Assembly (NCBI GenBank): GCA_963851265.1
Contig: CAWKNZ010000002.1
Coordinates: forward strand, 1,568,001 to 1,632,000
Direction: 5' to 3'
DNA from: an uncultured Gemmatimonadales bacterium
GTDB lineage: Bacteria > Gemmatimonadota > Gemmatimonadetes > Gemmatimonadales > Gemmatimonadaceae
DNA: 64,000 bases
Position 1 is the first letter of the stretch. Each line of letters starts with the position of its first letter. The translations under genes and the position numbers were made by a program. Positions 736-63,348 of this stretch are shown here, one piece after another. The notes beneath the pieces are model-generated. The model had not been told where the DNA came from, did not search any database, and worked only from the letters and a program-made list of their open reading frames with translations.

Positions 736-791
736 GAGGGGAGCAAGCGGGAGCGGTGGGCGCCCGCGGGGGCGCCCGTACACGGATCGTG

Positions 792-1511
792 TTAGGCGCG
801 GACGCCGAAGAGCGCGCTGCCGAGCCGGACGAGCGTCGCGCCCTCCTCAACGGCGATTTCGTAGTCGCCGCTCATGCCCATCGACAGCTCGGCCGCGGGG
901 TGGCCGGCCTCGACGAGGACGGCGCGCGCTGCACGCGCGCCTGCGAAGATCGTCCGCAGCGCGCGCTCGTCGGCGTCGAGGGGGGCGATCGTCATCACGC
1001 CGCGCACCACCACCCCGGGAAGGGTGGTGAGACGCTCGGCTTCTGGGCGTACGAGATCGGCATCGTAGCCGCCCTTCGACGCCTCGCCGCTGACGTTCAG
1101 TTGCAGCAGGACGTCGACGGGTCGGTGCCGCGCCACGCCGTGCTCATGCAGCGCGTCGGCGAGGCGAGCGCTGTCGCACGAGTGGATGAGCGAGAAGCCG
1201 TCGACCTGACGCACCTTGTTGCGCTGCAGGTGGCCGATGAGGTGCCACCGGACCGGCACCCCCACTGCGGTCATCTTTCCGACGGCTTCCTGGACCCGGT
1301 TCTCGCCGACGTCGTGCACGCCCGCTGCCCACGCGTCACTCACCACCTCGGCCGGGTGCGTCTTCGTGACGGCGACGAGGGTGACGTGTTGCGAGTGGCC
1401 CCCGCGCTGGACCGCAGCCGCGATGCGCGCCCTGGCCTCCGCCACGCGCTCGGCCACCGGCGACGCGGCGGGCGAGCTGTGTGGAGCTAGATGCATGTGG
1501 GGCAACGACAT
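792..1511 (-). CDS. yggS: YggS family pyridoxal phosphate homeostasis protein
   Basis: LVAVTKT, GENRVQE, WHLIGHLQRNK and LSMGMSGDYEIAVEEGATLVRLGSALFG motifs. Confidence 0.95.
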   Translation of the reverse strand: MSLPHMHLAPHSSPAASPVAERVAEARARIAAAVQRGGHSQHVTLVAVTKTHPAEVVSDAWAAGVHDVGENRVQEAVGKMTAVGVPVRWHLIGHLQRNKVRQVDGFSLIHSCDSARLADALHEHGVARHRPVDVLLQLNVSGEASKGGYDADLVRPEAERLTTLPGVVVRGVMTIAPLDADERALRTIFAGARAARAVLVEAGHPAAELSMGMSGDYEIAVEEGATLVRLGSALFGVRA

Positions 1512-1521
1512 GCGCGGTAAG

Positions 1522-3705
1522 CTACCTCGCCTCGCAGGGGCCCTCAAGGGAACGCGGCCGCGGCGTCGCCCGAAGTGCAGGCGCCACCGGTCCGCCGCTG
1601 GACGCTGCGAGGACGGCCGCGGGACACGCGAGTTGGCGATACGCCCACGCGACGACACCGTCGCCCGTGCTGTCGCGGAGCCAGGCGGCGTCGATACGCG
1701 GCACGCGCGCCGCCGCTGCCGCGAGCGCGCGACGATCCCCGAGCGCCGCACCGGCCGCGGACGAGAGCGGCGGCGCGATCACAATGACCCCGGCGTCGCC
1801 GCGTCCGGCGGTCCGATCGGGTACCCACTCGACGGTGAGGCCGCGGAGCTGCCATGTGCCCCGGCCGTCCGCGATCGCGGCACGCGTCGCGTCGTCGGTC
1901 GCGAGCGTCACGGCGACGGGGCGACCGGCTCGCGCGGCGCGTGCCGCGACGGCCGCGACGGTCGCCGTCGAACCGAGCCAGACATCGACGGCGTGCCGAT
2001 CGAGGAGCCCACCCCGCCGGGCGAGTTCGGCCCTGTACCAACGCGCCGGAAGGAGCGAGACGGTCACCGTCGTCACGTCGCGCCGCAAACCGAGCGCCGT
2101 CTGCGCCTGCCAGAGTGGATACGTGTCGTTATCCGCGTTGACGAACACCACGGCGCGCGCCGGCGCGTTCTCGAGCAGCGCGCGCGCGTACGCGCCCGCG
2201 GCGTACGCTGCGGGAAGGCGGGTTCGGGTCGCCGCCGACCAGTTGAGCGCGAGCGGCAGCGACGCGAGGCCGACGCCGATCGCACCTGCGGGGGCGCGCG
2301 ACGGCGCGCGCGTCGACCGCGTTAGGCGGCGCGCCGAGGCGACCGCACCGATGCCCGCCCACACGCCCCACGCCCACCAGGCGAGCACGAAGAAGTAGTC
2401 GCGCTCGCGCGCCTCGTGCGGGGCGCTATCGGGGAGCACGCCCGCGCCGAAGCTCGGGCCGGCCTTCAGGTTGAGGTAGCACGCCACGCCTATGCTACCC
2501 GCGACGAGCACGAGGAGCAGCGCGACCCACGACCGGCGATCGCGGCCCCGGTGCCACGCCGAGCCATGGGCGCCGAGGAGAACGAACGCGATCGTGATCG
2601 GCGTTCGCGTCCAGCTCGGCGCCACGTCGGGCGCGACGCCGAGCGCGACCTGCCAGTCGGCCCACTCGCCGAGGTTGGCGAGCTGGAGCCACCACGGGGC
2701 CTGACGGGGCCAGAGGGGCGCGACGGCGTACTGCCGACGCGCGACCGCCGACACGAGACGCGCCCACGTCGATGGGTCGCCCTGATTGAGCCACGGATCG
2801 TGCGCGGCGCGGACCAGGAGGATGAGCGTGGCGGAAACGGCCACGGCACTCGCGAGCGCGATCGCGCCCGCGTCGATCGCGGCGGCCGGTCGGGCGGCGT
2901 CCGCGCCGGGCGTGGCGCCACGTCGTGCGCGTCGCGCGTGTACCGCGCAGGCGATCAGCCCCGCGCCGCCAAGCGCGACGAGGGAGCCGCGTCCCGTTCC
3001 GACTCCGGCGACGGACACCGCCGCGGCCGCGAGTGACGCGGCGCGCGTGCGCGCAAACCCGCGCGATACGCCTAACGTCGCGCGCTCGTCGCTCGCGGCG
3101 GCCGGCACCGACGCGAGCCATGCGGCCGCGGGGGACACGACGAGCGCGCTCAGGTGCAGCGGAACCGCGAGTGCGAGCGCGTACGCCGTTGCCGCTGTCG
3201 CGCGAGCACCCTGTTCGGCCCCGCCGCGCGTACCCAAACGCCTGCCCGCGTGCTCCGCCGCGACCAGGGCAGCGCAGGCGAGCGCGAGCGACGCGGCGTA
3301 GACCTCGGCCTCGGTCGCGTTCGCCCACACCGTGGTCATCGTCCCGGCGCAGATCGCGGCGGCGACTCCACAGCCACGGTCGCGCGTCCACCGCGCCACG
3401 AGCCACGCGGTGCACCCGCCGGCCGCGGCGGTGCACGCGGCCGAGAACAGGTTGCCGGCGAGCGCCTCGCGCGCGCCGAGCAGGCCCGCGCCCAGCACCC
3501 ACACCCGGCCGATCGCCACGAAGAGCGGCGTTCCCGGGGGGTGCGGGATCCCGAACGTGGCGAACGCTGCGAGGAACTCTCCCGCATCCCAGAACGTCAC
3601 GTCGGGCGCGGCGGTCGCCGAGTACACGACGGCGAGGACGAGTGTCGCGAGCACCGCGGCGGCCCGCGGCGAGCCGTCCCGCGCGGTCGACCCGCGCGCG
3701 GTCAA
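1522..3705 (-). CDS. DUF2723-domain multi-pass membrane protein (TMEM260-like GT-C glycosyltransferase)
   Basis: FWDAGEFLAAFATFGIPHPPGTPLFV, ATEAEVYA, ERDYFF and DNDTYPLW motifs; many hydrophobic helices. Confidence 0.85.
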   Translation of the reverse strand: MTARGSTARDGSPRAAAVLATLVLAVVYSATAAPDVTFWDAGEFLAAFATFGIPHPPGTPLFVAIGRVWVLGAGLLGAREALAGNLFSAACTAAAGGCTAWLVARWTRDRGCGVAAAICAGTMTTVWANATEAEVYAASLALACAALVAAEHAGRRLGTRGGAEQGARATAATAYALALAVPLHLSALVVSPAAAWLASVPAAASDERATLGVSRGFARTRAASLAAAAVSVAGVGTGRGSLVALGGAGLIACAVHARRARRGATPGADAARPAAAIDAGAIALASAVAVSATLILLVRAAHDPWLNQGDPSTWARLVSAVARRQYAVAPLWPRQAPWWLQLANLGEWADWQVALGVAPDVAPSWTRTPITIAFVLLGAHGSAWHRGRDRRSWVALLLVLVAGSIGVACYLNLKAGPSFGAGVLPDSAPHEARERDYFFVLAWWAWGVWAGIGAVASARRLTRSTRAPSRAPAGAIGVGLASLPLALNWSAATRTRLPAAYAAGAYARALLENAPARAVVFVNADNDTYPLWQAQTALGLRRDVTTVTVSLLPARWYRAELARRGGLLDRHAVDVWLGSTATVAAVAARAARAGRPVAVTLATDDATRAAIADGRGTWQLRGLTVEWVPDRTAGRGDAGVIVIAPPLSSAAGAALGDRRALAAAAARVPRIDAAWLRDSTGDGVVAWAYRQLACPAAVLAASSGGPVAPALRATPRPRSLEGPCEAR

Positions 3706-4511
3706 CCGGCGAGCGGGATGGTGGCGTACTCGGACGTGCGCCCGCCGCGCCCGCGCAGGAGGTCGCGCAGCTCTGCCGGCTGGAGCGCGCGTCGGAGGCG
3801 CCCGTCCACGGCGAGCGACACGGTCCCAGTCTCCTCACTGACGACCACGACGAGGGCGTCGCTCTCCTCGCTCAGGCCGAGCGCGGCGCGGTGCCGGGTG
3901 CCTAACGACCGGTCGTCGACGCGCGCCTGCGAGAGCGGCAGAATGCACCCCGCACCGACGATCGTGTCGCCGCGCACGACGACGGCGCCGTCGTGCAGCG
4001 GCGAGTACGGCGTGAAAATCGTCGCCAGCAGGTCGCCAGAGACCTTCGCGTTGAGCAGCGTTCCCGTCTCGAGCACGTCGCCGAGCGAGACCTCGCGTTC
4101 GAGCGCCACGATGGCGCCGGTGCTCGACCGGCTCAGGCGCTCGACCGCGTCGCCGATCTCGTCGACGACTTCGTCCTCTTCGAGTGCGCGGACGAGGCGC
4201 GTGGTTCGCGGTTGCGTCAGGTGCAGCACCGTCGCCCGGAGCTCCGGCTGGAACGCGACGAGCGCGACGAACGGCAGATACCGGACCGCGGCCGCGAGGA
4301 GCGTTCCGAGCAGCGTGAGTTCGAGCGCCCACGCGACGCCGTACGCGACGGCGAGGACGAGCAACGCGACCACGAGTTGAACGGCGCGCGCGCCGCGGAC
4401 GACGCGCAGCATGCGGTACGCGACCCACCCGACCACTCCGACGTCGAGCACGTCGCGCCAGCCGACGTGGAAGGCGTCGCCGAGCGCGCGGGAGAGGTCG
4501 GGGGTCGGCAT
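3702..4511 (-). CDS. cdaA: Diadenylate cyclase CdaA (DAC domain, 3 N-terminal TM helices)
   Basis: FQPELR, PLHDGAVV and LGTRHRAALGLSEESDA (DGA and RHR motifs). Confidence 0.95.
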   Translation of the reverse strand: MPTPDLSRALGDAFHVGWRDVLDVGVVGWVAYRMLRVVRGARAVQLVVALLVLAVAYGVAWALELTLLGTLLAAAVRYLPFVALVAFQPELRATVLHLTQPRTTRLVRALEEDEVVDEIGDAVERLSRSSTGAIVALEREVSLGDVLETGTLLNAKVSGDLLATIFTPYSPLHDGAVVVRGDTIVGAGCILPLSQARVDDRSLGTRHRAALGLSEESDALVVVVSEETGTVSLAVDGRLRRALQPAELRDLLRGRGGRTSEYATIPLAG

Positions 4512-4580
4512 GCGCCGAAGCTAGTCCCCTGGCGCGGACGGATGGACCCCCGCGCCCCCGCGCCCCTCGCCTCGGTCCCG

Positions 4581-5474: not shown

Positions 5475-5480
5475 CGCAGA

Positions 5481-7133
5481 CTAGTGCGCGTCGACGGCCA
5501 CGACGGGGCCCTTGGGGCGGCGCAGCAACAGCACCGCGGGTGCCACGACGACGAACGTGAGCAGCAACAGCAGCCATGCGTCGTTGAAGCTGAGAATCGA
5601 CGCCTGCGCCTGCGCCTGGCCGTCGAGCACCTTGAGCGCGGCCTGACGGGCCTCGTTCATCGAGGCGCCGCGTGCCATGAACGCGCCCATGGTCTGCTGC
5701 ACCCGCGTGTCGGTAAGCACCTGCCCGGTGACGAGGTGGCTCACCACGTCGCTGCGGTGCTGGTCGGTGTGGGTCGTGATGTAGTTCGCGAGGATCGCGA
5801 TGCCGAACGACCCACCGAGCTGGCGCGCTAGGTTGATGAGACCGGCCGCCTGCTGCGCCTCACTCGGCTTGAGCGCCGCGTACGCGACGTTGTTGATGGG
5901 CGTGAAGAGCATCCCCATCCCCGCCCCGCGGATCATCAGCGCGGTGCGCACGTCGGGCTCGCCGGCGGCCGTCGTGAGGTGGCCCATCTTCCACATCGAC
6001 ACCATGAAGAGCGCCATCCCGATCGCGATCAGGAGGCGCGCGTCGACCAGCGGCTTGGGACCGTTGAGCAGCCGCCCGCAGATGAGCGCGGTCACCGCCG
6101 TCGCGAGACCGCCGGGGAGCATCGCCAGCCCCGTCTCGGTGGGCGAAAAGTGCAGCAGACTCTGCGTGAACAGCGGGAAGATGAACGTGCCGCCGTACAG
6201 GCCGAAGCCGAGCGCGACGAACAGGAAGATGCTCGCGGCGAGCTGACGGTTCTTCAGCACGCGGAAGTTGACAACCGGATGCTTGTTGCGCGGCGTGAGC
6301 TCCCACCACAGCATCGCGATGAGCGCGACCACCGCCGTCGCGGTCAGGCGGACGATCCACTGGTCGCTAAACCAGTCCTTCGTGTTTCCCTCCTCAAGGA
6401 CGTACTGCAACGAGCCGAGCCCGAGCGTCAGCAATCCGATGCCCGCCCAATCGACGGGCACCCCGGTTTTCCGCATCCCCGGTGGATCGATCAGGAACGT
6501 ACTCACCAGGAACGTCGACAGGATCCCGATCGGCACGTTGATGAAGAAGCACCAGTTCCACGTGTAATTGTCGGTGATCCACCCGCCGAGCGTCGGGCCT
6601 AACGTCGGCGCGACGATGATGCCGAGCAGGAAGATGGCCTGCACGAGGCCCTGCTGCTCCGCCGGGAAGATCTGCCGGATCGTAGCCTGCGCGGTCGACA
6701 GGAGGGCCGCGCCGCCGGCGCCCTGCACGATGCGCCACAGCACGAGCTCGCCGAGCGAGTGCGAGTTGCCGCACAGCCACGACGAGATGATGAACAGGAT
6801 GATGGAAAACGTGAGGTAGCGCCGGCGCCCGAACCGTTCCGTGAAGAACGCGGTCATGGGCAGGAAGATCACGTTCGACAGGATGTAGCCTGTGGAGACC
6901 CAGCTGATCTCTTCCTGGGTCGCGCCCAGATTGCCGGCCATCTGCGGCAGCGCGACGTTGATGATCGTGGTGTCGAGGACCTCCATGATGGCCGCGGTGA
7001 TGAGGCCGAACAGGATGATCCACTTGTACTGGTTTTGCTCTGCCGCAAACGCCGCGGCCGCGCGGGCCGCTGCGGATGAGGCGGCGTTCGCGGCAGGCGG
7101 CCGCTGAACGGCCTCTCTGACGGTGGTTGCCAT
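5481..7133 (-). CDS. DHA2 (EmrB/QacA-type) MFS efflux transporter
   Basis: MEVLDTTIINVALPQM, APTLGPTLGGWITDNYTWNWCFFINVPIG; about 14 TM helices. Confidence 0.92.
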   Translation of the reverse strand: MATTVREAVQRPPAANAASSAAARAAAAFAAEQNQYKWIILFGLITAAIMEVLDTTIINVALPQMAGNLGATQEEISWVSTGYILSNVIFLPMTAFFTERFGRRRYLTFSIILFIISSWLCGNSHSLGELVLWRIVQGAGGAALLSTAQATIRQIFPAEQQGLVQAIFLLGIIVAPTLGPTLGGWITDNYTWNWCFFINVPIGILSTFLVSTFLIDPPGMRKTGVPVDWAGIGLLTLGLGSLQYVLEEGNTKDWFSDQWIVRLTATAVVALIAMLWWELTPRNKHPVVNFRVLKNRQLAASIFLFVALGFGLYGGTFIFPLFTQSLLHFSPTETGLAMLPGGLATAVTALICGRLLNGPKPLVDARLLIAIGMALFMVSMWKMGHLTTAAGEPDVRTALMIRGAGMGMLFTPINNVAYAALKPSEAQQAAGLINLARQLGGSFGIAILANYITTHTDQHRSDVVSHLVTGQVLTDTRVQQTMGAFMARGASMNEARQAALKVLDGQAQAQASILSFNDAWLLLLLTFVVVAPAVLLLRRPKGPVVAVDAH

Positions 7134-7238: not shown

Positions 7239-9230
<1,992 letters not shown>

Positions 9231-29693: not shown

Positions 29694-29736
29694 GGCGGCC
29701 GACCGCGGATCGCCCGACCGCACCTCGTCGCGGATC

Positions 29737-30692
29737 CTAACGACCGGCGGCCCGCGCCTCGCGTTCGAAGAACTCGACGATCCGTTCGGACGCGTTCACG
29801 CCCGGAGCCGGCCGCGGCGCGAAGATGAACGGCCGGCGTCCGCCCGGCCATGCGTGCGCCTGTGCCGCGACGACGAGTTCGCGCACGTCGCGGCCGGGGG
29901 GACACGCCGTGGCGCGGATCTCGATTACCGCGGCCGAGCTGTCGCGCTCGGCGGCCGACGCGCAGCCATTGCGGCGACTCCAGTACCGCAGCGCGCCCGC
30001 GAACGAGACCGCGAACGCGTTGCGATTGCGCCGCTGGTTGTCACGGTGATCGGCGCGCAGCTCTCCGTCTTCGGCACCGCGGACGAGCATCACCGGGAGT
30101 GCGGCGCGACCCTGACACACGGTGTCGGGCATCGCGCCGGCGACGTCCGCGACGCCCGCGACGAACGCATCGGGTTGGCAGGCGAGTCGGAGCGCGAGCA
30201 TGCCACCGTTGGAGAAGCCCGTCGCGTACACCCGCCCGCGCTCCGAGACGCCGAGCGCGACGAGCGAGTCGGCGACCGCGCGCGCGAAGCCCACGTCGTC
30301 CACCTCGTTGTCGGGGGCGGCGCCGCAGCACGTGATTGCGTTCCACGCGAGGTCGAAGTACCGGATGCCGCCCGTGCCGTTGAGGTAGGCGACGGCCCAC
30401 CCGTGCCGGTCCGCAACGGCGTCGAGCCCGGTCGTGTGCTCCATGATGTTCGCGTTCGCCTGGTAGCCGTGGAACGCGAGGAGCAGCGGGACCACGCGTC
30501 GCGGGCCGGGCGGCAGGTGCAGCAGGTACGACCGCTCGCGCCCGGCGGCGCGCATCGTGTGAAACGTGGTCTCGCCCGGGCGTGCGACGGCGAGCGGGCG
30601 GGCGCCCAGAATCGGGGCGCACGCCGCTGCGGCCGCGACGAGTCCGCCTAACAGGATGCGGAGCGCCGCCGCGCGCCGCGCGCCGGGGTCAC
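29737..30692 (-). CDS. PHB-depolymerase/LpqP-type esterase, probable lipoprotein; apparent 1-nt frameshift near the 5' end
   Basis: FHGY, WNAITCCG, DDVGF, TGFSNGG and HAWPGG. The frame upstream of ATG 30555 stays open through a signal LRILLGGLVAAAAAC but has no start codon; the GTG at 30692 is in another frame. Confidence 0.8.
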
Positions 30693-36550: not shown

Positions 36551-36705
36551 CGTCGCGCGCGCGACGCGATTGAGGAGGGCAATCGACGGCTGGCTTAACA
36601 CGCGGCGTGGCGCGGCGTCTTCCTGACGTGCGCGACGTCGGATGCGGCGAGTTAGGCCGGTCGGTTCCGCCGCGCACCAGCCCTCCACTCCTCGTCTCAG
36701 GTCCC

Positions 36706-38640: not shown

Positions 38641-40725
<2,085 letters not shown>

Positions 40726-49587: not shown

Positions 49588-49605
49588 CGCGTTAGGCCGC
49601 GCCGG

Positions 49606-51087: not shown

Positions 51088-53760
51088 CTACAGCCCGACC
51101 GTGACGCGCCCATACAGGAACCGGCCGTTGAAGCCGAACGGCGAGAACGTCGAGTACGGCAGAATCCCGTAGAACGAGTTTCCGCTGTTCCCGGCCGCGA
51201 CGTTGCCGTTGTTGTTGAACCGATCGGGATAGACGTTGAACACGTTGTCCGACCCGGCCGTGAGCGTCGCGCGCGACATGACGCGGTACGACACGCTCAC
51301 GTCGCTCACCCACTTGGCGCCGAACGTCTGGTCGAGTGACTGGAACCCCGGCGAGTTGGTCGATGTCACCGACCCGAAGCGCTGCGAGCGCAGGACCAGC
51401 CCGATCGGGCCGCGGTCGTACGAGGCCGAGAGCAGGACGTTGCTGCGCGGCTGCGCGTTCTCGAGGCGCGCGCGTTCGACGCGGCCGAACAGCGTCTCGC
51501 TCTGCCCCTGAAGCACTGGCGGCGTCGGGATGACGTCGACGACCCGCGTCTGCGTGCGGCTGTACCCGGCCGTGAACCGCGCGAGGCCGCCCGCGTAGGT
51601 CACGCCGTAGTTGCCCACGGCGTCGATGCCACGGGTGCGCGTGCCGACCGCGTTGGTGAAGAACTGCGCGCCGCTGATGTTGGAGAAGCCGGCGGCCGCG
51701 AGCGTCTGGCGGATGGCCGTCCCGCTGAACGTGTTCGAGAACACGATGCGGTCGCGGATGCGGATCTGGTACGCGTCCACGGTGAACCCGAGGTTGCGCA
51801 GCGGCTCGAACGTCGTGCCCAGTCCGAAGTTGACCGACCGCTCCGGCTTGAGTGGCGTGGCGCCGAGAGCGCGCGCTTCGGGGCTGTTGACCGGGAAGGT
51901 CCGCGTGTCGAAGATCTGGCCGTTGGTCACGACCGTCTGCGTCTGCGAGTAGAAGTTCTGCGCGAGCGAGGGGGCGCGGAACCCGGTCCCCGCCGAGCCG
52001 CGGAGCGCGAACTCGCGCACCACCGCGTACCGGGCGCGCACGAGCCCGTTGGTCGTCGACCCGAAGTCGCTGTAGTGCTCGTACCGGCCGGCCACGCCGA
52101 GCAGGAACTGCCGCGTCAGGTCGCTCTCGAAATCGGCGTACACCGCCTCGCTCGTGCGCGACGCGTTCGTCCGGTCGGTCGGCTGGTACCCGGGGAACAC
52201 CTGCGACCCGATGGCGCCGGGCTTGCCGGCGTTCGGCCCGTCGAGGATCGCGACCCCGCCATTACTGTACGACGCCGAATCGCCGGGCGCGATGCGGTAG
52301 TTCTCGGCGCGGAACTCGGCGCCCGTCGCGATGCGAAGCGGCGAAGCGTTCGGTAGCCGCACCGTGCGCGTGAGGTCGAGGTTGGTCGCCCCCTGCTGGA
52401 ACCGGAGCGTGCCGGCGTCGAAGGTCCGCGGGCTCCCGGCCCCGTACGTGACGTTCGCGCTGTTCGCCACGTTGAAGTTGAACGAGTTGGTGCCGTAGCT
52501 CTGGCTCAGGTCGACGTCGAACCCGCCTAACGTGCCGCGGCCGCCGACGACGGCCGACCCGTCCCAGATCTTGCCGCGGATGATCGGCAGGAACCCGTCG
52601 GGGTAGATCGCGCGCACCGTGCGGTCGTCGAGCGGGCGGCGGAAGAACCCGGGGCTCTCGCCCCACCGGTTCGCGAGCGTGCCGAACGAGTACAGGGTGA
52701 CGCCACCGCCCCCGAGCGCGTACTCGGCGTCGAACGCACCCTGCGCCGAGCGCTGCCGCGGGTCGCCGACCCAGCTGTCCGCTCGGGGAACGGAGGTGGC
52801 GTTACGCGGGTCGCCCGTGAAGTATTGCTGGCGCGGGTCGAGCCCCGCGCGGTTCGTGCGCCCCTGGCTGCGGAACTCGAGGTCGCCGTGGATGAAGCGG
52901 TGCGGGTTGGTGCTCTGGCCGCCGTCGAGCGCCACGTTCGCGAGCCCGCCGTCGCCCGCCGAGTAGCCGCCGCCCTCGGCGGTGAGGGTGCCCGGCTGGT
53001 TCCCCTTGAGCACGATGTTGATGACGCCGGCGATCGCGTCCGACCCGTACTGCGCGGCCGCGCCCTCGCGCAACACCTCGATGTGGTCGATCATCGAGAC
53101 CGGGATCGCGTTGAGGTCGACGCCCGTGGAGCCGCGGCCCACGCTGCCGTTGACGTTGACGAGAGCGCTGGTGTGGCGGCGTTTGCCGTTGACGAGCACC
53201 AGGAGCTGGTCGGGGTTGAGCCCGCGCAGCGTCGCGGGGCGCTCCTGGTCGGTGCCGTCGGTGACGGACGGGCGCGGGAAGTTGAAGCTCGGCGCGAGCG
53301 CCTGAATGACCTGCGCCGTTTCGGTGCGTCCGGTGGCGCGGATGTCGGCCTGCGTGAGGACGTCGACGGGAACCGGCGATTCGATAACGGAGCGCGGCTG
53401 CGCGCGCGAGCCGACCACGGCCACCGCTTCGAGCGCCGACGCCGAACGCGCGAGGCGGAACGCGCGCGTCACGGTCTCGCCCGCGCGGACGACGACGGTG
53501 TCGCGGGCGACCGCGTAGCCGATGAGGCGGGCGCGGAGTTCGTACGTGCCCGGACGCAGTGCGACGCGGAACGTGCCGTCCGCGCGCGTGATCGCCCCCG
53601 ACGTCGTCCCGGTGACCGCGATCGTCGCGCCGGCGAGGGGCTCGTTCCCGTCGCGGCTCGTCACGCGCCCCGTGACGATGCCCGTCGTGACCTGCGCGGC
53701 AGCGAGGGCGGGCGCGGCGGCGAGCCCGGCCGCGAACGTCCGCGCGGCGACGCGCGGCAT
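51088..53760 (-). CDS. TonB-dependent receptor with an N-terminal carboxypeptidase-regulatory-like domain
   Basis: LRGLNPDQLLVLVNGKRRH, IEVLREGAAAQYGSDAIAGVINIVLK plug motif, GFRAPSL, LKPERS and C-terminal GRFLYGRVTVGL. Confidence 0.95.
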   Translation of the reverse strand: MPRVAARTFAAGLAAAPALAAAQVTTGIVTGRVTSRDGNEPLAGATIAVTGTTSGAITRADGTFRVALRPGTYELRARLIGYAVARDTVVVRAGETVTRAFRLARSASALEAVAVVGSRAQPRSVIESPVPVDVLTQADIRATGRTETAQVIQALAPSFNFPRPSVTDGTDQERPATLRGLNPDQLLVLVNGKRRHTSALVNVNGSVGRGSTGVDLNAIPVSMIDHIEVLREGAAAQYGSDAIAGVINIVLKGNQPGTLTAEGGGYSAGDGGLANVALDGGQSTNPHRFIHGDLEFRSQGRTNRAGLDPRQQYFTGDPRNATSVPRADSWVGDPRQRSAQGAFDAEYALGGGGVTLYSFGTLANRWGESPGFFRRPLDDRTVRAIYPDGFLPIIRGKIWDGSAVVGGRGTLGGFDVDLSQSYGTNSFNFNVANSANVTYGAGSPRTFDAGTLRFQQGATNLDLTRTVRLPNASPLRIATGAEFRAENYRIAPGDSASYSNGGVAILDGPNAGKPGAIGSQVFPGYQPTDRTNASRTSEAVYADFESDLTRQFLLGVAGRYEHYSDFGSTTNGLVRARYAVVREFALRGSAGTGFRAPSLAQNFYSQTQTVVTNGQIFDTRTFPVNSPEARALGATPLKPERSVNFGLGTTFEPLRNLGFTVDAYQIRIRDRIVFSNTFSGTAIRQTLAAAGFSNISGAQFFTNAVGTRTRGIDAVGNYGVTYAGGLARFTAGYSRTQTRVVDVIPTPPVLQGQSETLFGRVERARLENAQPRSNVLLSASYDRGPIGLVLRSQRFGSVTSTNSPGFQSLDQTFGAKWVSDVSVSYRVMSRATLTAGSDNVFNVYPDRFNNNGNVAAGNSGNSFYGILPYSTFSPFGFNGRFLYGRVTVGL

Positions 53761-53963: not shown

Positions 53964-55991
53964 TCAGCTCGCGACCGCGCTGTTGGTCACGCCGCCGTGC
54001 GCCGGCGTGCCGGCGCCGAGCTCGCCGGCTGCGGCGTCGTTGGCGACGTAGTCGTGCGGCAGCGCGCGGGTGCGCACCTCTTCGACGCAGCGTGCGACGA
54101 ACGCGTCGAGGGTCATGGTTTCCTGCTGCTTCTCCTGCCCGCGGCGGCGCACCGTTACGGTGCCCGCGTCCGCCTCGCGGCGTCCGAGCACGGCCATGTA
54201 GTTGACCTTGAGCACGCTCGCGTCGCGGATGAGGACGCGGTAGTTCTCGTCGCTCCCCGCGTCGAAGCCGACGCGGAGGCCGGCGGCGCGCAGCGCGTCG
54301 GCGACCTGCTGCCCGTACGCGTTGAGCTCGGGCGAAATCGGCACCACCCGCACCTGCTCGGGCGCCAGCCAGAGCGGGAACGCCCCGGCGAAGTGCTCGA
54401 TGAGAATCGCGATGAAGCGCTCGAACGAGCCGCTCACCGCGCGGTGGATCACGACCGGGCGGTGCGCGTGGTTGTCGGCCCCCGTGTAGGTGAGGTCGAA
54501 GCGCTCGGGCGCGGCGTAGTCGAGCTGGATCGTGCCTAACTGCCACGCGCGCCCGATCGAGTCGGTCACGTCGAAGTCGATCTTCGGCCCGTAGAACGCG
54601 CCGTCGCCCTCCTTCAACTCGTACGGCCGCCCCGTCGCCTCGAGCGCGCCCCGGAGCGCGCCCTCGGCGCGGTCCCACATCTCGTCGCTGCCGATGCGCT
54701 GCTCGGGGCGCGTCGCGAACTTGAGCGACGCCGTGAGGCCGAACGTCTCGTAGTGGCCGAGGATGAAGTCCATCAGGAACTGGACCTCCGCGTTGATCTG
54801 GTCCTCGGTCAGGAAGACGTGGCAGTCGTCCTGCGCGAACTGCCGCACGCGCGTCAGCCCGGACAGCGCGCCCGAGAGCTCGTTGCGGTGCAGCACGTCG
54901 AACGTGACGTAGCGCAGCGGCAGCTCGCGGTACGAGTGCTTGGCCGAGCCGTAGAGGATGTAGTGCGACGGGCAGTTCATCGGCTTGAGCGCCATGTCGT
55001 GCTCGTCCGTCTCGTTGTCGAGGACGAGGAACATGTTCTCCCGGTACTTGCCCCAGTGGCCCGAACGCTCCCAGAGTTTGCTGTTGTACAGGAGTGGCGT
55101 CTTGATCTCGTGGAAGCGAGCCGCCTGCCGCTCGCGCACGAACTCGACGAGCGTGTTGTACAGCGTCGTGCCGCGCGGCGTCCAGAACGCCGCACCCGGC
55201 GCGATCGGAAAGAACTGGAAGAGGTCGAGCTGGCGACCGACGAGGCGGTGGTCGCGTCGCTTGGCCTCCTCGATGCGGTGCAGGTGCGTGTCGAGCGCGT
55301 CCTTCTTGAAGAACGCGGTCCCGTAGATCCGCTGCAGCGCCTGGTTGCGCGCGTCGCCACGCCAGTACGCGCCGGCGGCGTGCGTCAGCTTCACGTGCCG
55401 CAGCCACCCCGTGTCGGGCACGTGCGGGCCGCGGCACAGGTCGATGAATTCGCCGTCACGGTAGACCGAGATCACCTCGCCGTCGGGCAGGTCGGCGAGC
55501 CGCTCGCGCTTGAGCGGGTCGTCGCGGAAGATCTCGGCCGCCTCCTCGCGCGAGACCTCGCGCCGCTCGAACGGCAGCTTCTCGCTCGCGACCTTCTGGA
55601 ACTCGGCCTCGAACTCGGCCAGGTCTTCGGGTGTGAACGGATCGCCGACGCCGAAGTCGTAATAGAAGCCGTCCTCGATCGCCGGACCGAAACCGATCTG
55701 CGCATCGGGTCGCCGGCGGCGGACCGCGGTGGCGAGCGCGTGCGCGGCCGAATGGCGGAGGACGCCGAGCGCCTCGGGGTCGCGCTCGGTGAGCACGCGG
55801 AGCGCGCCACCGGTGCGGATCGGCGTCGCGAGGTCCTGCACCACGCCGTCGATGCTCACGGCGACGGCGGCGCGGAGCAGGCGTTCGCCGATCGTCGCGA
55901 CCACGTCGCGCGGCAGGGTGCCCGGCGCGATCTCGCGCGTGGCGCCGTCGGGAAGCGTGAGGACCAGCAGCGAATCGAGAGTGTCGGACAT
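53964..55991 (-). CDS. thrS: Threonine--tRNA ligase
   Basis: TGS domain, HSAAH, DLCRGPHV, KPMNCP, GLTRVR, GAFYGPKID and HRAVSGSFERF. Confidence 0.98.
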   Translation of the reverse strand: MSDTLDSLLVLTLPDGATREIAPGTLPRDVVATIGERLLRAAVAVSIDGVVQDLATPIRTGGALRVLTERDPEALGVLRHSAAHALATAVRRRRPDAQIGFGPAIEDGFYYDFGVGDPFTPEDLAEFEAEFQKVASEKLPFERREVSREEAAEIFRDDPLKRERLADLPDGEVISVYRDGEFIDLCRGPHVPDTGWLRHVKLTHAAGAYWRGDARNQALQRIYGTAFFKKDALDTHLHRIEEAKRRDHRLVGRQLDLFQFFPIAPGAAFWTPRGTTLYNTLVEFVRERQAARFHEIKTPLLYNSKLWERSGHWGKYRENMFLVLDNETDEHDMALKPMNCPSHYILYGSAKHSYRELPLRYVTFDVLHRNELSGALSGLTRVRQFAQDDCHVFLTEDQINAEVQFLMDFILGHYETFGLTASLKFATRPEQRIGSDEMWDRAEGALRGALEATGRPYELKEGDGAFYGPKIDFDVTDSIGRAWQLGTIQLDYAAPERFDLTYTGADNHAHRPVVIHRAVSGSFERFIAILIEHFAGAFPLWLAPEQVRVVPISPELNAYGQQVADALRAAGLRVGFDAGSDENYRVLIRDASVLKVNYMAVLGRREADAGTVTVRRRGQEKQQETMTLDAFVARCVEEVRTRALPHDYVANDAAAGELGAGTPAHGGVTNSAVAS

Positions 55992-57598: not shown

Positions 57599-60415
57599 AT
57601 GACCGTCACGTCCGACGAGCCGGAGCGCGCGCTCCCGCCGACCTACGACCCGACCGCTACCGAGGGCGCGATCCACGCGCGCTGGGACGCCGCGGGGATC
57701 TTCACCGCACACGCCGCGCGCTCGGATCGCGACGGCGGCGGGCGCGCGCCGTTCACGGTCCTCATGCCGCCGCCTAACGTCACGGCGGTCCTGCACGTCG
57801 GGCACGCGCTCAACGACACCGTGCAGGACGTGCTCGCGCGGTGGCGCCGCATGGCGGGCGACGAGGCGCTCTGGCTTCCGGGCACCGACCACGCCGGAAT
57901 CGCGACCCAGAACGTCGTCGAGAAGAAGATCGCGCGCGAGGAAGGGCTGAGCCGCTACGACGTCGGACGCGAGGCGTTCGTGGAGCGCACGGCCGAGTTC
58001 GTACGCGAGACTGGCGGGGCCATCCTCGAACAGCTCAAGGCCATCGGCGCGTCGTGCGACTGGTCGCGTACTGCGTACACGCTGTCGCCGCCGCTGTCGC
58101 GTGCCGTGCGCGAGGCCTTCGTCCGCCTGTACGAGCGCGGGTTGGTCTACAAGGGCCACCGCGTGATTCACTGGTGCCCGCGGTGCATGACGTCGCTCTC
58201 CGACGAGGAGGCCGAATTCGAGGACACGCCGGGCCGCCTGTTTCATATCCGCTACGTGGTGAGCGACGAGCCCGAGCGGTCGCTCGTCGTCGCGACCACG
58301 CGCCCCGAGACCCTCTTCGGCGACGTGGCGGTGGCCGTGCACCCGGACGACGAGCGCTACGCGGACCTCGTCGGCCGCACGGTGCGGCTGCCGCTCGTCG
58401 GCCTCGCGATTCCCGTGATCGCGGACGCGTACGTGGACCGCGAGTTCGGCACGGGGGCGCTCAAGATCACGCCGGCGCACGACGCGAACGACTATGACGT
58501 CGGGCGCCGCCACGGGCTGAGCGTGCCGGTGGTGATCGACGCGGCGGGCTTCGTGCGCGAGGTGGCCGACGCCGCCGGCCGGGTGCCCGCGGCGTTCGAC
58601 GGGCTCGAGCGGTTCGAGGCGCGCGCGCGCGCCGTCGAGGCGCTCACGGCCGAGGGCACGCTCGCGAAGGCCGAGGTCCACCGGCACGCGGTGCGACACT
58701 GCTACCGGTGCGACACGGTGGTCGAGCCGCGCCTGTCCGACCAGTGGTTCGTGCGCATGGCGCCGCTCGCGGAGCCGGCGCTGGCCGCGGTGCGCGACCG
58801 CACGGTGCGCATCCTCCCCGAGCGGTGGGAAGCGGTGTACGTGCGCTGGATGGAGAACATCCGCGACTGGAACATCTCGCGGCAACTCTGGTGGGGACAC
58901 CGAATCCCGGTCTGGTACGACGACGCGACCGGTGAGACGTTCGTGAGCCGCGAGGACCTGACGCATTCGCCGACGACGGGGAACCTCCTGCGCCAGGACG
59001 AGGACGTGCTCGACACGTGGTTCTCGTCGTGGCTCTGGCCGCTGTCGACGCTCGGGTGGCCCGACGAGGACGCGCCGGACCTGCAGGCGTTCTTCCCGAG
59101 CGACGTGCTCGTCACCGCGCCCGAGATCCTCTTTTTCTGGGTCGCGCGGATGATCATGGCCGGGTACGCGTTCCGCGGCGCGGCGCCGTTCCACACGGTG
59201 TACCTGCACGGCACCGTGCGCGACACGCAGAACCGGAAGATGTCGAAGTCGTTAGGCAACGGCATCGACCCGCTCGAGGTCGTCGCGCGCTACGGCGCCG
59301 ACGCGCTCCGGTGGACGGCGGTGGCGGGGCTCGGGATGGGCGCCGACGTGGTGCTCGACCCGGACGACCTCGAGAAGTCGTTCGCGCCAGGCCGCAACTT
59401 CTGCACGAAGCTGTGGAACATCGGGCGGTTCCTGCTGCAGAACGTGGGGGCCGCGCCGGTGCTCCCGCTCGACCAGGTCGCGCCGGAGCGGCTGACGCAC
59501 GCGGACCGGTGGGTGCTCGCGCGGCTGGACGCCGCGGTGCGGGACTGCGACGCCGCGCTCGGCCCCGCGCGCCCGCCGCGGGCGGCGGCCGCGTACGACG
59601 GCGCGCCGCGCTGGCCCGAGGCGGAGCGCGCCGCCGGGCTCCGCCTCAACGAGTACGCCGAGGCCGCGCGGCGGTTCGTCTGGAGCGAGCTGGCCGATTG
59701 GTATCTCGAGAGCACGAAGTCACGCCTCGGCGCGGCAGACGCCGACGACCGCGAGGTGGCGCGCGCCGTGCTCGCGCATGCGTTCGACGGCGCCCTGCGG
59801 CTGCTGCACCCGATCGTGCCGTTCATCACCGAGGCGCTCTGGCAACGGCTGCCGTCGTCGCCGTCGGACGCGCTGCTCGCGTCGTCCGCGTGGCCGGCAC
59901 CGCGGTCCGCGGCAGGCCGCGCGGACGACGCATCCGCGAGCGAACCCTTCGACATCGCGCGCGCGTGCGTCGACGCCGTTCGCCAGATCCGGTCGGACTA
60001 CGCCGTCCCGCCCGGTCGGCGCGTCGAGGTGTACGTGCAGACCGCCGCCGACCGCGACAGTGGCGAGCTGGCGACGACGGTCGGCGCGCTCTCGCGCGCC
60101 GACGTGCACCTCGTCGCGGGCGACGCGCTGCCCTTCGACCGGCAGCTCGCCGCACAGCAGGTGGTTCGCGGCGCGACGGTGTACGTGCCACTCGCCGGGC
60201 TGGTGGACGTGGCGAAGGAGATCGAGAAGCTGACGAAGGAGCTCGCCGGACTCGACAAGCAGCTCGCGGCGCTCCGCGGGCGGCTCGCCAATCCGGGGTT
60301 CGTCGACCGCGCTCCGGCGGCCGTGGTCGAGGCCGAGCGCGCCAAGGAACGGACGTGGACGGACCGCGCGGCGCAGCTCGCGGAGTCGATCGCGGCCCTG
60401 CAGCGCGGCGCGTGA
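57599..60415 (+). CDS. valS: Valine--tRNA ligase
   Basis: PPPNVTAVLHVGH, ATTRPET, DWNISRQLWWGH, DVLDTWFSS, KMSKS and a C-terminal coiled coil. Confidence 0.98.
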   Translation: MTVTSDEPERALPPTYDPTATEGAIHARWDAAGIFTAHAARSDRDGGGRAPFTVLMPPPNVTAVLHVGHALNDTVQDVLARWRRMAGDEALWLPGTDHAGIATQNVVEKKIAREEGLSRYDVGREAFVERTAEFVRETGGAILEQLKAIGASCDWSRTAYTLSPPLSRAVREAFVRLYERGLVYKGHRVIHWCPRCMTSLSDEEAEFEDTPGRLFHIRYVVSDEPERSLVVATTRPETLFGDVAVAVHPDDERYADLVGRTVRLPLVGLAIPVIADAYVDREFGTGALKITPAHDANDYDVGRRHGLSVPVVIDAAGFVREVADAAGRVPAAFDGLERFEARARAVEALTAEGTLAKAEVHRHAVRHCYRCDTVVEPRLSDQWFVRMAPLAEPALAAVRDRTVRILPERWEAVYVRWMENIRDWNISRQLWWGHRIPVWYDDATGETFVSREDLTHSPTTGNLLRQDEDVLDTWFSSWLWPLSTLGWPDEDAPDLQAFFPSDVLVTAPEILFFWVARMIMAGYAFRGAAPFHTVYLHGTVRDTQNRKMSKSLGNGIDPLEVVARYGADALRWTAVAGLGMGADVVLDPDDLEKSFAPGRNFCTKLWNIGRFLLQNVGAAPVLPLDQVAPERLTHADRWVLARLDAAVRDCDAALGPARPPRAAAAYDGAPRWPEAERAAGLRLNEYAEAARRFVWSELADWYLESTKSRLGAADADDREVARAVLAHAFDGALRLLHPIVPFITEALWQRLPSSPSDALLASSAWPAPRSAAGRADDASASEPFDIARACVDAVRQIRSDYAVPPGRRVEVYVQTAADRDSGELATTVGALSRADVHLVAGDALPFDRQLAAQQVVRGATVYVPLAGLVDVAKEIEKLTKELAGLDKQLAALRGRLANPGFVDRAPAAVVEAERAKERTWTDRAAQLAESIAALQRGA

Positions 60416-61968
60416 GCGGTCGCGACCGAAGCGGTGGGGCGCGGCGGCGCGCGTGCGCCGCGAGCACGATCACGGTCGTGACCGGCGGGTGGTGGATCGC
60501 GGCGTGCGCGTCGCCCGGCTTTCCTGCCGGCGGACCGCCGCGCGCGATCCCGCCGCGCCTCGTCGCCATTGCGCCCGACACGCTGGCCGTCGGCGCACGC
60601 CCGAAGTCCGTCGAGTTCACCTTCGACGAGGTCATCAACGAGGCGTCGCGCGGGACCGGCGCGGCCGCCGGCACCGGCGGCGGCGCGACGGGGCTCGAAT
60701 CGGTGGTGCTCGTCTCGCCGCGGAGCGGCTCGGTGTCGGTCGACTGGGGCCGCGAGCGGATCTACGTCCGCCCACGCCGCGGCTTCCGGCCTAACGTGAC
60801 GTACACGATCACGATCCTCGCCGGATTGTCGGACCTCCGGAACCACGCGCGCGACTCCGCGACGATCGCCGTGTTCAGCACGGGCGGCGCGATCGCGGGG
60901 AGCGAGATCCGCGGCGTGGTCTTCGACTGGGTGAACGGGCGCACGGCGCCCGGCGCAGTCGTCGAGGCCGTCGCGGCGGACAGCGTGCCGTACGTCGCGC
61001 TCGCCGATACGGCCGGGCGGTTCGTGATCGCGAACGTTCCCGCCGGCGCCTACCTGGTCCGTGGCGGGGTCGACGTGAACGGCAACCGCGCGATCGACCC
61101 TCGCGAACCGTTCGACACGGCGCGCACGTCCGCCACGGTTCGTGTGGGTCCGCCCGTCTTTACCGCGCCCATCGCGCCGGCGGTGCTTGCCGCCGAACTC
61201 GAGGCGTCCAAGGACAGCACGCGGCCGCGACCGCGGCGAGTGCCGGCACCGCGGGTCGGCGTGGGCGTGGGCGACACCACGATCAGGGGCCTCGCGCTGT
61301 ACGCGTTCGTGCACGACACCCTCACCCCGCGCGTCGGAACGGTCACGCCGATCGACAGCAGCACGCTCCGCCTGTCGTTCGACCGCGCGCTCCGCCCCGA
61401 CCAGCCGTTCGGGCCGGCGCAGATTCGCGTCGTCGGACCAGACTCGGCCGTCGTCGCCGTGCGCGAGGTGCTGACCGCGGCCGTCTTCGACTCGACGGCG
61501 CAAGCGGCCATCAACGCGGCGCGCGCGCACGCGGACAGCGCGGCCCGCGCGAACCCGCCGGCCAACCCGCCGGCGAACGCGGCTGCCGGCGCTCGAGCGA
61601 CCGCGCCGAACACGTCGCCCATCGGCGCCGCCAACCGGCCGCCCGGCCCGCGACTGGGGCGCCCGGTTCCGCCCGTGGACCTCATCGTCCGGCTCGGCGC
61701 GAATCTGCGACCGAACACCATCTACCGCCTGGCGGTGCGCGACATCCGATCGCTGTCCGGCATCGCGGGTACGACGGAGCGGACGTTCACGACGCCACGG
61801 TCGGCACCGCCGCCGCGCCCGTCACCCGCACCGCGCAGTATCCCGGCCCGCCCGGCGGGCGCCCCCGGCGCGGCGCCTGCGGGAGGGCCGCCCGCCGGCG
61901 CGCCGCCGCCCACGTCGCCGGCGACGCCCCGGACCTCGCCGGGCACACCGCCCGACCGTGAGCGCTGA
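60412..61968 (+). CDS. Ig-like (Big_5-type) domain lipoprotein with a Pro-rich tail
   Basis: IAACASPGFPAGGP lipobox region, FTFDEVI, YTITILAGLSDLRN and DVNGNRAID; GTGA overlap with valS. Confidence 0.75.
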   Translation: MSGRDRSGGARRRACAASTITVVTGGWWIAACASPGFPAGGPPRAIPPRLVAIAPDTLAVGARPKSVEFTFDEVINEASRGTGAAAGTGGGATGLESVVLVSPRSGSVSVDWGRERIYVRPRRGFRPNVTYTITILAGLSDLRNHARDSATIAVFSTGGAIAGSEIRGVVFDWVNGRTAPGAVVEAVAADSVPYVALADTAGRFVIANVPAGAYLVRGGVDVNGNRAIDPREPFDTARTSATVRVGPPVFTAPIAPAVLAAELEASKDSTRPRPRRVPAPRVGVGVGDTTIRGLALYAFVHDTLTPRVGTVTPIDSSTLRLSFDRALRPDQPFGPAQIRVVGPDSAVVAVREVLTAAVFDSTAQAAINAARAHADSAARANPPANPPANAAAGARATAPNTSPIGAANRPPGPRLGRPVPPVDLIVRLGANLRPNTIYRLAVRDIRSLSGIAGTTERTFTTPRSAPPPRPSPAPRSIPARPAGAPGAAPAGGPPAGAPPPTSPATPRTSPGTPPDRER

Positions 61969-62581
61969 CGTGGCCGCTGAGCCTGACGTGACCGAGCGCC
62001 GGCGTGGCGCGGTGTTTTTCGACCGCGACGGGACGCTCATCGAGGATGAGCATTACCTCGCCGACCCGGATCGGGTTCGCCTTAGACCGGGCGCGGCGGC
62101 AGCGGTGCACCGCGTGCGCACCGCCGGGCTCGCCGCCGTCGTCGTGACCAACCAGTCGGGGATCGGGCGCGGGCTGTTCGGCGAAGCCGAGTACGAAGCC
62201 GTGCGCGCACGCCTCGACGACCTCCTCGCCGGCGCAGGTGCGCAACTCGACGCGACCTACCACTGCCCGCACGCGCCCGACATCGAGCCGCCGTGTGCGT
62301 GCCGCAAACCGGGGCGCGCGCTGTTCGAGCGTGCGGCGGCGGAGCTGGGACTCGACCTCGCGCGCTCGGGTGCGATCGGCGATCGGGTGCGCGACCTCAC
62401 TCCCGTCGTTCGGCTCGGCGGATACGGCGTGCTGGTGCCATCGCCCGACACCCCGCTGGCCGAGATGACGCGGGCGCGCGACGAATACGCCCTCGCCACG
62501 ACGCTCGACGCCGCGGTCGACCGCGTGCTGGCGCGAATCGCCGCGCGAGGCGGCGGCGCGGACGGCGTGGACATCCCGTGA
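61958..62581 (+). CDS. gmhB: HAD-IIIA phosphatase, D,D-heptose 1,7-bisphosphate phosphatase-like
   Basis: FFDRDGTL, VTNQSGIGRG, CPH...CACRKP and IGD. Confidence 0.88.
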   Translation: MSADVAAEPDVTERRRGAVFFDRDGTLIEDEHYLADPDRVRLRPGAAAAVHRVRTAGLAAVVVTNQSGIGRGLFGEAEYEAVRARLDDLLAGAGAQLDATYHCPHAPDIEPPCACRKPGRALFERAAAELGLDLARSGAIGDRVRDLTPVVRLGGYGVLVPSPDTPLAEMTRARDEYALATTLDAAVDRVLARIAARGGGADGVDIP

Positions 62582-63306
62582 CCGGGCGCGCACGCGTGGC
62601 GGTGTTCGCGTCCGGCGGTGGCAGCAACCTCGGCGCCCTGCTCGACCATCTCGATGCGCGCGCGCACGCCCGGGCCGCCGACGTGGTGCTCGTCGCGAGC
62701 GACCGCGCCGGCGCGCTCGCGCTCGACCGCGCCCGGCAACGCGGAATCGCCACGCAACATGTCGCCGACCCCGCGGACGCAGACGCGATGCTCGCGACGC
62801 TCGCGGCCAAAGGCGTGGACCTCGTCGTCCTCGCCGGATACCTCAAGTTCGTGCCCGCGGAGGTCACGCGGGCGCACCCCGGGCGCATGCTCAACGTGCA
62901 TCCGTCGCTGCTGCCGGCCTTCGGCGGACCGGGGATGTACGGCGCCCGCGTGCACCGCGCCGTGCTGGCCGCGGGCGCGGGGGTGAGCGGGGCCACGGTG
63001 CACTTCGTCGACGAGGTGTACGACCGCGGGCCGATCGTCGCGCAGTGGCCGGTGCCCGTGCGCGCCGACGACACGCCCGAGTCGCTCGCGGCGCGCGTGC
63101 TCCGCGTCGAACACCTGCTGCTGCCTCGCGCGGTCGACGCCGTGGCGTCCGGCCGCGTCGCGCTCTCGCACGACGGGCGCGTCCGGTCGGTCTACGCGCC
63201 CGCCGACTCGCCGTTCGCGCCGAGCGGCCCCGACGCGCACGACGACGCCGTAGCGGCGTCGCTCGACGCCGCGTTCGCGGCACCGTTCGACCCGGCCGGC
63301 GCCTAA
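62578..63306 (+). CDS. purN: Phosphoribosylglycinamide formyltransferase
   Basis: ASGGGSNL, LAGYLK, NVHPSLLPAFGG and GATVHFVDE. Confidence 0.96.
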   Translation: MTGRARVAVFASGGGSNLGALLDHLDARAHARAADVVLVASDRAGALALDRARQRGIATQHVADPADADAMLATLAAKGVDLVVLAGYLKFVPAEVTRAHPGRMLNVHPSLLPAFGGPGMYGARVHRAVLAAGAGVSGATVHFVDEVYDRGPIVAQWPVPVRADDTPESLAARVLRVEHLLLPRAVDAVASGRVALSHDGRVRSVYAPADSPFAPSGPDAHDDAVAASLDAAFAAPFDPAGA

Positions 63307-63348
63307 CTCGCGCCGGCACCGGCCACCGCCCAACACGCCGCCCCACCC

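Follow-up and report, generated by a model that had tools for sequence, protein, structure and literature searches.

The stretch examined here, a window of 64,000 nucleotides from an uncultured Gemmatimonadales bacterium (assembly GCA_963851265.1, contig CAWKNZ010000002.1, positions 1,568,001 to 1,632,000), raises the question of why a single heptamer, GCCTAAC (GTTAGGC on the opposite strand), recurs in it so often and what might read it. GCCTAAC is a strict DNA-level word that is independent of reading frame and strand. The suggestion of the initial annotation that it is a lineage-specific DNA-level signal is supported by the genome comparisons described below; a protein that reads it was not found. 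Among the functions proposed there, uptake or recombination stays the best candidate, while methylation, a polarised site resembling Chi or the FtsK-orienting polar sequences (KOPS) and a regional matS-like site are argued against. We propose that the word serves as a self-spreading tag in the uptake and recombination of DNA, comparable to DNA uptake sequences (DUS) and uptake signal sequences (USS), and put the chance that this is correct at about even.

The 23 exact copies first noticed between positions 791 and 63307 are all present, with GCCTAAC on the + strand in 16 cases and on the − strand in seven. One hundred dinucleotide shuffles give 2.25 expected copies and none of them reached 23; the earlier zero-order estimate of about 5–6 copies also agrees with ours (5.68 for the window). 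The sole CCTAAC/GTTAGG hexamer that does not extend to the heptamer is confirmed at 29735–29741. With our gene calls the frames are 12 G-TTA-GGC, three G-CCT-AAC, two GC-CTA-AC, three GCC-TAA stops and three intergenic sites. The previous counts for CCT-AAC, CTA and stops are thus retained, while those for Leu-Gly (13) and intergenic sites (2) become 12 and 3. The disagreement concerns one site and is probably due to 49591, which lies four bases from a called start. The copies are listed below by the strand on which GCCTAAC is read; the gene names yggS, CdaA, plsC and purN are those of the initial annotation.

791–797, − strand: GCC-TAA stop of a yggS-like gene
2321–2327, − strand: frame GC-CTA-AC
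3070–3076, + strand: G-TTA-GGC (Leu-Gly) in a minus-strand gene
3900–3906, + strand: G-TTA-GGC in an SLGTRH context, CdaA-like gene
6597–6603, + strand: G-TTA-GGC
16528–16534, + strand: G-TTA-GGC
17398–17404, + strand: G-TTA-GGC
23617–23623, + strand: G-TTA-GGC
30646–30652, + strand: intergenic
32297–32303, + strand: G-TTA-GGC in an ELGGKS context
32831–32837, + strand: G-TTA-GGC
35865–35871, + strand: frame GC-CTA-AC
36651–36657, − strand: intergenic
39991–39997, − strand: GCC-TAA stop of a plsC-like gene
42185–42191, + strand: G-TTA-GGC, common to genomes G001, G002 and G004
42836–42842, − strand: G-CCT-AAC, common to G004 only
49591–49597, − strand: four bases upstream of a called start (intergenic, or the 5′ end of the gene)
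52525–52531, + strand: G-TTA-GGC, absent from the G001 and G002 alignments
54534–54540, + strand: G-TTA-GGC, common to G001, G002 and G004
57772–57778, + strand: G-CCT-AAC in a PPPN context, ValS-like gene
59251–59257, − strand: G-TTA-GGC in the KMSKSLG of the ValS-like gene
60789–60795, + strand: G-CCT-AAC
63301–63307, + strand: GCC-TAA stop of a purN-like gene

The source genome (G000; 4.6 Mb in 12 contigs, 94% complete) has Gemmatirosa and Roseisolibacter as its near kin within the Gemmatimonadaceae, as judged from the named homologs of one protein. It holds 1,762 copies, 877 on the + strand and 885 on the − strand, at 33–55 per 100 kb on each contig, and GCCTAAC has the highest z-score of all its 7-mers, at 18 times the order-2 and 14 times the order-3 Markov expectation. 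Its presence on 12 of 12 contigs argues against a regional, matS-like role: instead of the confinement to, or exclusion from, one chromosome domain that marks matS or Noc-binding sites (NBS), there is only a mild and partly conserved dip around parAB. In the window the next base is G in 16, T in four and A in three copies, as previously reported, but the remark that it is never C reflects the small sample. Genome-wide it is G in 1,396, A in 243, C in 69 and T in 54 copies, and the word is therefore best written GCCTAAC(R), or (Y)GTTAGGC.

All gene-level results rest on our own codon-model gene caller (3,738 genes, 87% coding). Genes contain 1,277 copies compared with 46–89 in 20 synonymous shuffles, so that the enrichment survives a codon-preserving null; a further 291 lie between genes, and stops are overlapped by 194. 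Independence of TTA codons from their flanks is not borne out, 985 of the 1,274 TTA codons being located in G-TTA-GGC. Leu-Gly (985 of 10,762 opportunities, 9%), Pro-Asn (199 of 1,429, 14%) and Ala-stop (131 of 864, 15%) are all used at similar rates, and the word therefore occurs in both mRNA strands. A cause at the RNA level or in tRNA-Leu(UUA) is ruled out because the word is found on both strands, in stops and at the 291 intergenic sites. Counted with the codons of the word frozen, the 21 one-mismatch neighbours range from 0.3 to 2.1 times the expected number, with the exception of one small class at 4.0 times (15 versus 3.8). The sole large excess among them is that of GTTGGGC (1,258 versus 748 expected), which represents the TTG step to or from TTA, and other GTTRRRY variants are mostly close to expectation. 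The tag reading frame of the G000 tmRNA (C2:1229062) also terminates in the word, as GCC-TAA-C.

Among 31 genomes of the order, ten carry 156–1,520 copies per Mb and 21 about 3–45. At least 140 CGTTAGG per Mb, a cut-off picked after the data had been inspected, is reached in 12 of 151 genomes that are at least 90% complete; these 12 come from all three families, and about ten genomes are intermediate. The first tally, like the 31-genome counts of methylase, IntI, ComEC and AddAB-type nuclease given below, includes the unpublished genome G011 and the second both G011 and G080, with no claim hanging on either alone, and comparisons of word-rich with word-poor genomes are descriptive and not tests, since kin are not independent. 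One genus spans both extremes (4,172 in G115 and 4,454 in G147 versus 111 in G143) and a second gives 612, 213 and 24, so that density differs about 30-fold or more inside one genus. The first G is relaxed in G012 (121 of 177 CCTAAC hexamers in 77 kb). The comparison of positions in orthologs, which had been suggested as a check, reveals turnover: 73 of 101 Leu-Gly sites of G000 are common to G004 (84% protein identity), TTG is found in G000 at 25 of 86 G004-only sites, and in one 20-kb region sharing with other genera is close to nil. No other dominant word was detected in 80-kb samples of the word-poor genomes G006, G015, G021, G028 and G029 or in 39–60 kb samples of the word-poor G014, G016 and G020. 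In G029 a distinct A/T-containing word around GTAAGAGG, on a 10-base scale, occurs about 17 times in 80 kb (L041–L044). A literature search that left most subscription papers and REBASE uncovered, and that could miss an entry in a methylome table, found no account of GCCTAAC/GTTAGGC as a genome signal; the two spellings matched an integron paper and a cancer paper.

The earlier statement that the word matches no known signal is wrong in one respect, as it is the attC core box of Gemmatimonadales integrons. The attC core boxes R″ and R′ read RYYYAAC and GTTRRRY, and a GTTAGGC-type box is also common in the attC sites of other GC-rich bacteria. Scanning of the two array regions of G000, on C10 and C6, gave 12 attC-like hairpins, nine of which end in CGTTAGGC. 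Nine word-poor genomes were sampled in regions chosen for paired sites or intI, and seven had such hairpins. GCCTAAC stands at the start of 49 of their 62 strand hits (about 31 sites, each on both strands), and the end is CGTTAGGC or TGTTAGGC in 44; the count is biased by regions picked because they contain the word, although the choice took no account of the eighth base. At this eighth position C and T are preferred in attC ends and in the genomic word alike, and YGTTAGGC closes attC hairpins across the order.

Almost all genomic copies differ from attC sites in being single, in-frame and without a hairpin. None of the 23 window copies forms the R″/R′ ends of a 55–141 bp imperfect hairpin in a cassette array, as the 12 G000 sites do, and only 12 GCCTAAC-to-GTTAGGC pairs within 170 bp occur genome-wide. 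It is most improbable that the copies are decayed attC sites or footprints that the integron integrase left at secondary (attG) sites. Such an origin would fit a word that equals the attC ends of G000 and of its word-poor relatives, but the 12 hairpins of the scanned arrays face 1,762 copies, and GTTRRRY variants other than the word show little excess. IntI scores above cut-off in 18 of 31 genomes without tracking the word. The attG consensus is merely GWT, the only feature that the integrase requires at genomic sites according to the accessible text of bioRxiv 10.1101/2022.09.11.507474. The sites are in-frame substitutions, with TTG at the 25 of 86 G004-only positions, and this substitution pattern largely refutes the footprint explanation. 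The integrase gene of the G000 chromosomal integron (C6:3005–6044) is split by some 2 kb of inserted DNA in which a serine-recombinase-like open reading frame is seen, as judged by eye. A cassette array at C10:188900–215025 (contig end) contains many small toxin–antitoxin-like genes and two IS110-like transposase copies.

Copies of the word are under-represented within about 300 bp of one another. In G000, 79 pairs lie within 300 bp where 202 are expected, with a deficit in all orientations and a normal density beyond 500 bp. In-frame Leu-Gly pairs, for which the null consists of random draws from real opportunities, number 0 versus 26 under 100 bp and 17 versus 76 under 300 bp. Three of the five further genomes that were sampled also show the exclusion, namely G012 (43 versus 101 expected pairs under 150 bp, with the hexamer core counted), G004 (6 versus 32 under 200 bp in 538 kb) and the plasmid of Gemmatirosa kalamazoonensis KBS708 (30 versus 80 under 300 bp in 450 kb).

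A strict, unpolarised word with short-range exclusion could also be the site of a nucleoid or chromosome-architecture protein, the footprint or looping of which would fix a minimum spacing and shield flanking DNA. The largest gap in G000 (45 kb) covers parAB and parS-like palindromes, and the parB region is under average in four of four relatives (34 versus 72, 50 versus 71, 125 versus 152 and 4 versus 6.8). The sharp desert at parB is, however, not conserved, as G012 has sites on both sides of parB, and densities of about 3–1,500 per Mb that vary about 30-fold or more within a genus are unlike those of an essential architectural site. We consider this explanation distinctly unlikely. The word-free 45 kb (G000:C1:182876–227962) hold gidA–parA–parB and mnmE; about 17 copies would be expected there, and four relatives have only a mild dip. 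The variant parS-like palindrome TGTGGCACGTGCCACA occurs twice beside parAB (G000:C1:192709 and 195715) and again in G001 (C5:732446 and 735453) and G004 (C1:1524698 and 1527620), while G012 has a canonical-type site; judged from these sequences, the variant possibly reflects a shift of ParB specificity in the genus.

In two of the three genomes with good sampling, the word is surrounded by a halo of raised GC. Within genes of G000, GC at third positions exceeds the gene mean by 1.5 points at 10–60 bp and returns to the mean at about 300 bp, whereas the profile of a control word is flat and 1,798 matched unused opportunities (NCG-CT[CG]-GGC) have no halo. The halo is symmetric upstream and downstream and is seen on both strands at C/T, G/A and fourfold sites; opposite to it, A/T is higher at the two third positions closest to the word. 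In 818 genes with near and far codons, third-position A/T is 3.87% near and 6.21% far, with the near value lower in 620. Overall, synonymous A/T drops by about 40% near sites. The near/far A/T ratio is 0.61 (0.50–0.73) in G000 versus 0.99 (0.88–1.10) for the same codons of the word-poor G006 (139 orthologs), and near G004-only sites A/T amounts to 3.1% in G004 and 6.5% in G000, with odds of 1.82 (1.46–2.31) over background. These two controls tie the halo to the word and not to the locus. Its causal direction is less firm: the controls leave some room for sites that arise or persist more readily where a lineage has GC-rich patches of its own. Use per opportunity climbs from 2% to 18% with the third-position GC content of the gene (GC3), which is itself raised by the halo. 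The low-GC genes that are poor in the word were probably acquired; G004 genes without a close G000 homolog contain 3.86 versus 5.29 copies per 10 kb, a comparison based on homology and not directly on gene age.

In the proposed mechanism, the unmethylated (Y)GTTAGGC/GCCTAAC(R) would be recognised on DNA by a sequence-specific protein of natural transformation or homologous recombination, and word-bearing pieces a few hundred bases in length would be preferentially taken up or recombined. Where the protein tolerates them, point mutations giving rise to the word (such as CTG to TTG to TTA ahead of GGC) would spread by drive. A second copy inside the same piece would be redundant and gain nothing, hence the exclusion zone of about 300 bp. 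Added gene conversion near copies would push synonymous positions towards G/C and leave a symmetric halo, the shift arising through GC-biased conversion or through more effective selection. Lineages that exchange DNA with their own kind at different rates would let the same word accumulate in scattered genera. Drive by biased uptake or recombination of short fragments, for which DUS and USS offer a precedent, could thus cover the patchiness and turnover of the word as well as its enrichment, the exclusion and the halo, and would need a single length scale to do so.

The main rival, a methylation-free beacon for repair or protection, explains exclusion zone and symmetric halo equally well; we regard it as doubtful but as a serious contender. 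A protein bound or nicking at the unmethylated word would direct the repair of mismatches and of deaminated or oxidised bases within about 300 bp, and copies would be kept for a lower load of A/T-ward mutations, to which a second nearby copy adds nothing. MutS- and MutL-like genes were found in G000 by motif scan, and C/G divergence is slightly reduced near shared sites (0.309 versus 0.333), which repair also predicts. A saturating ratchet of similar type has been proposed for HIP1, at least in the part of PMC4390886 that is accessible, but it requires methylation, which is not reported for our word. A general drop in mutation rate alone would not move the GC equilibrium, and the observed effect is mainly on A/T. 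A repair beacon is further opposed by the lack of a halo on the Gemmatirosa plasmid and leaves the identity with attC ends unexplained. HIP1 and the word have in common that they are hyper-abundant, frame-independent and kept between genomes, with an unsettled function and a saturating-spacing model (PMC4390886, same portion). They differ in that HIP1 is a palindrome holding methylase sites, while the word lacks symmetry and is missing from the methylated motifs listed for the word-rich KBS708.

Sites of type IIG enzymes are asymmetric with a penultimate A, as is the word, and in Campylobacter an enriched site is reportedly linked to methylation by CtsM. The word could in principle be the target of an order-wide Eco57I-like N6-adenine methylase with an SNF2 helicase, enriched in the manner of HIP1 or the CtsM site, and this enzyme is the only intact DNA methylase found in G000. 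We nevertheless hold such a role to be very unlikely. The methylase occurs in 30 of 31 genomes, word-rich or not, and no residue of it separates ten word-rich from 19 word-poor genomes. While 5-methylcytosine is poorly detected in single-molecule real-time (SMRT) data, no C5 methylase was found in G000, at its 94% completeness. The cultured strain KBS708 has an ortholog of the methylase (P0024) and 892 copies of the word on its 1.1-Mb plasmid 1, versus 50 of a control word. The SMRT methylome of this strain nevertheless contains no listed motif other than RGATCY, ATGCAC and CCAGN7TCA (PMC3974934). The methylase explanation is therefore disfavoured, and N6-adenine methylation of the word is largely refuted by this methylome, the 30/31 distribution and the lack of discriminating residues. 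The word was also not found in main-text passages of two methylome surveys and one supplement, and a search of the literature for its methylated spellings returned no match.

The Eco57I-like methylase gene of G000 is followed by the helicase gene (C7:579717–585511; L002:3717–9511). The helicase is directly downstream wherever the locus reached that far, with one fused form (P0026), and the target-recognition region of the methylase is unusually conserved. The pair may be an orphan that resembles DrmMI/DrmD of DISARM and has a housekeeping role. Its target is likely to be ATGCAC, given the asymmetric form of that motif. A plasmid search based on the methylase returned distant matches only. Two hsdM-like type I methylase genes (C7:771339–772495 and C9:923–1858) lie in several frames and are either broken or assembly errors.

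As a short, asymmetric and over-represented word that, in the proposed mechanism, is tied to recombination, GCCTAAC resembles Chi, and around the C2 terminus the leading strand reads GTTAGGC in about two thirds of copies. This orientation bias follows gene direction and is weak after gene strand has been removed: between 0.8 and 1.83 Mb of C2, Leu-Gly is used at 161 of 1,742 leading and 42 of 594 lagging opportunities and Pro-Asn at 22 of 215 and 10 of 81. Unlike Chi, the word is thus unpolarised beyond gene strand, and its halo is two-sided. Moreover, PF12705 (AddAB-type nuclease) was not found in five of ten word-rich genomes (G002, G004, G008, G012 and G018), RecBCD-specific families not having been searched separately. 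The family is patchy in the order (14 of 31 genomes); eight word-poor genomes give strong matches, whereas several near-complete ones give none. A Chi-like or KOPS-like polarised site, an option also raised in the initial annotation, is hence scarcely credible. Gene direction flips at a dif-like site (G000:C2:1368949), a dnaA-like gene lies at C1:11.4–12.5 kb, 185 kb from parAB, and AddAB/AdnAB-type helicase–nuclease genes are found at C3:244574–251614.

The uptake or recombination tag is best compared with DUS and USS. Like these, the word is a single non-palindromic sequence with hundreds to thousands of dispersed copies on both strands and in genes, at kilobase-scale spacing, and is found poorly in low-GC genes of genomes that contain competence genes. 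In the accessible part of PMC2397512, the spacing of DUS equals the size of conversion fragments and recently acquired genes lack DUS; for USS, the text available of PMC7811141 describes uptake peaks of short fragments that centre on the site and no extra uptake from two USS within 100 bp. The word differs in its phylum and letters, in being shorter (7–8 bp), patchy within genera and identical to the attC core, and in a deficit instead of an excess of close pairs with few inverted terminator pairs. An excess of close inverted terminator pairs of the DUS/USS type is not seen and, on these sequence grounds, we do not claim membership of either class for the word.

Candidate machinery is present. 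ComEC, found in 31 of 31 genomes, and DprA, found in 39 of 42, are core genes, and G000 has a ComEA-like gene beside pilB, pilT-like and pilC genes, as well as PilM, a secretin and a ComM-like ATPase. The occurrence of the word in three families, its graded density and the lack of a tracking gene fit a reader of conserved specificity that is probably encoded by one of the order's core genes and the effect of which would vary by lineage.

Several observations weigh against an uptake or recombination tag. The word is just 7–8 bp long. Competence genes are equally common in word-poor genomes; neither ComEC, DprA, IntI nor the AddAB-type nuclease tracks the word among the genomes examined, and word-rich and word-poor genomes alike contain two PilX-like proteins, which are present in 27 and 31 of 42 genomes, this pair covering two of three minor-pilin clusters, with the third cluster and FimT-like pilins not profiled. 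No short-range deficit is seen in G001 (47 sites) or in a first G004 sample (59 sites), where at most eight pairs are expected, and none is visible in G008 (26 sites, at most eight expected), which is too sparse. Close inverted pairs are rare, with three GCCTAAC-then-GTTAGGC pairs within 30 bp in G000. According to the portion of PMC7811141 at hand, 23% of Haemophilus influenzae USS have another within 100 bp, unlike the word. The lower C/G divergence near shared sites, given above, belongs here as well. For G000-only sites the odds are 0.83 (0.49–1.35) and not significant. The KBS708 plasmid, with GC3 already at 95.3%, has no halo (+0.15 ± 0.25 points within genes and no fall beyond 1 kb), and the halo is weak or mixed in the small G001 and G012 samples, because of which it is established in two genomes of one genus and not order-wide; in G008, third-position GC near sites is raised by 4.7 ± 1.9 (467 codons). 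A link between GC content and recombination is strong in just one of ten species in the accessible part of PMC4866539, and our literature search found no report of a GC halo around uptake sequences.

The identity with the attC box suggests an extension of the uptake or recombination tag that is unlikely but would have consequences. The order would possess a conserved receptor for DNA import or recombination with the attC core box as its natural target, through which cells would search environmental DNA for integron gene cassettes; lineages that often transform with their own DNA would accumulate thousands of chromosomal copies of the word, and these would be small recombination hotspots with a halo of GC-biased conversion. 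If true, this would provide a bacterial sequence-directed hotspot with a measurable footprint in base composition, and a route for cassette recognition and acquisition.

Very few groups of bacteria are known to have words that tag a cell's own DNA, and whether selection or drive maintains these is still argued. The Gemmatimonadales offer about 3 to 1,500 copies per Mb across one order, a genus that includes both rich and poor genomes, and a strain in culture. Exclusion zone and lineage-specific halo set a length scale of about 300 bp for whatever acts at the word. They also allow GC-biased gene conversion in bacteria, an unsettled matter in genome composition, to be examined inside genes. Word-bearing DNA may aid the transformation of a phylum with few genetic tools, and the identity with attC could connect DNA uptake with the capture of integron cassettes.

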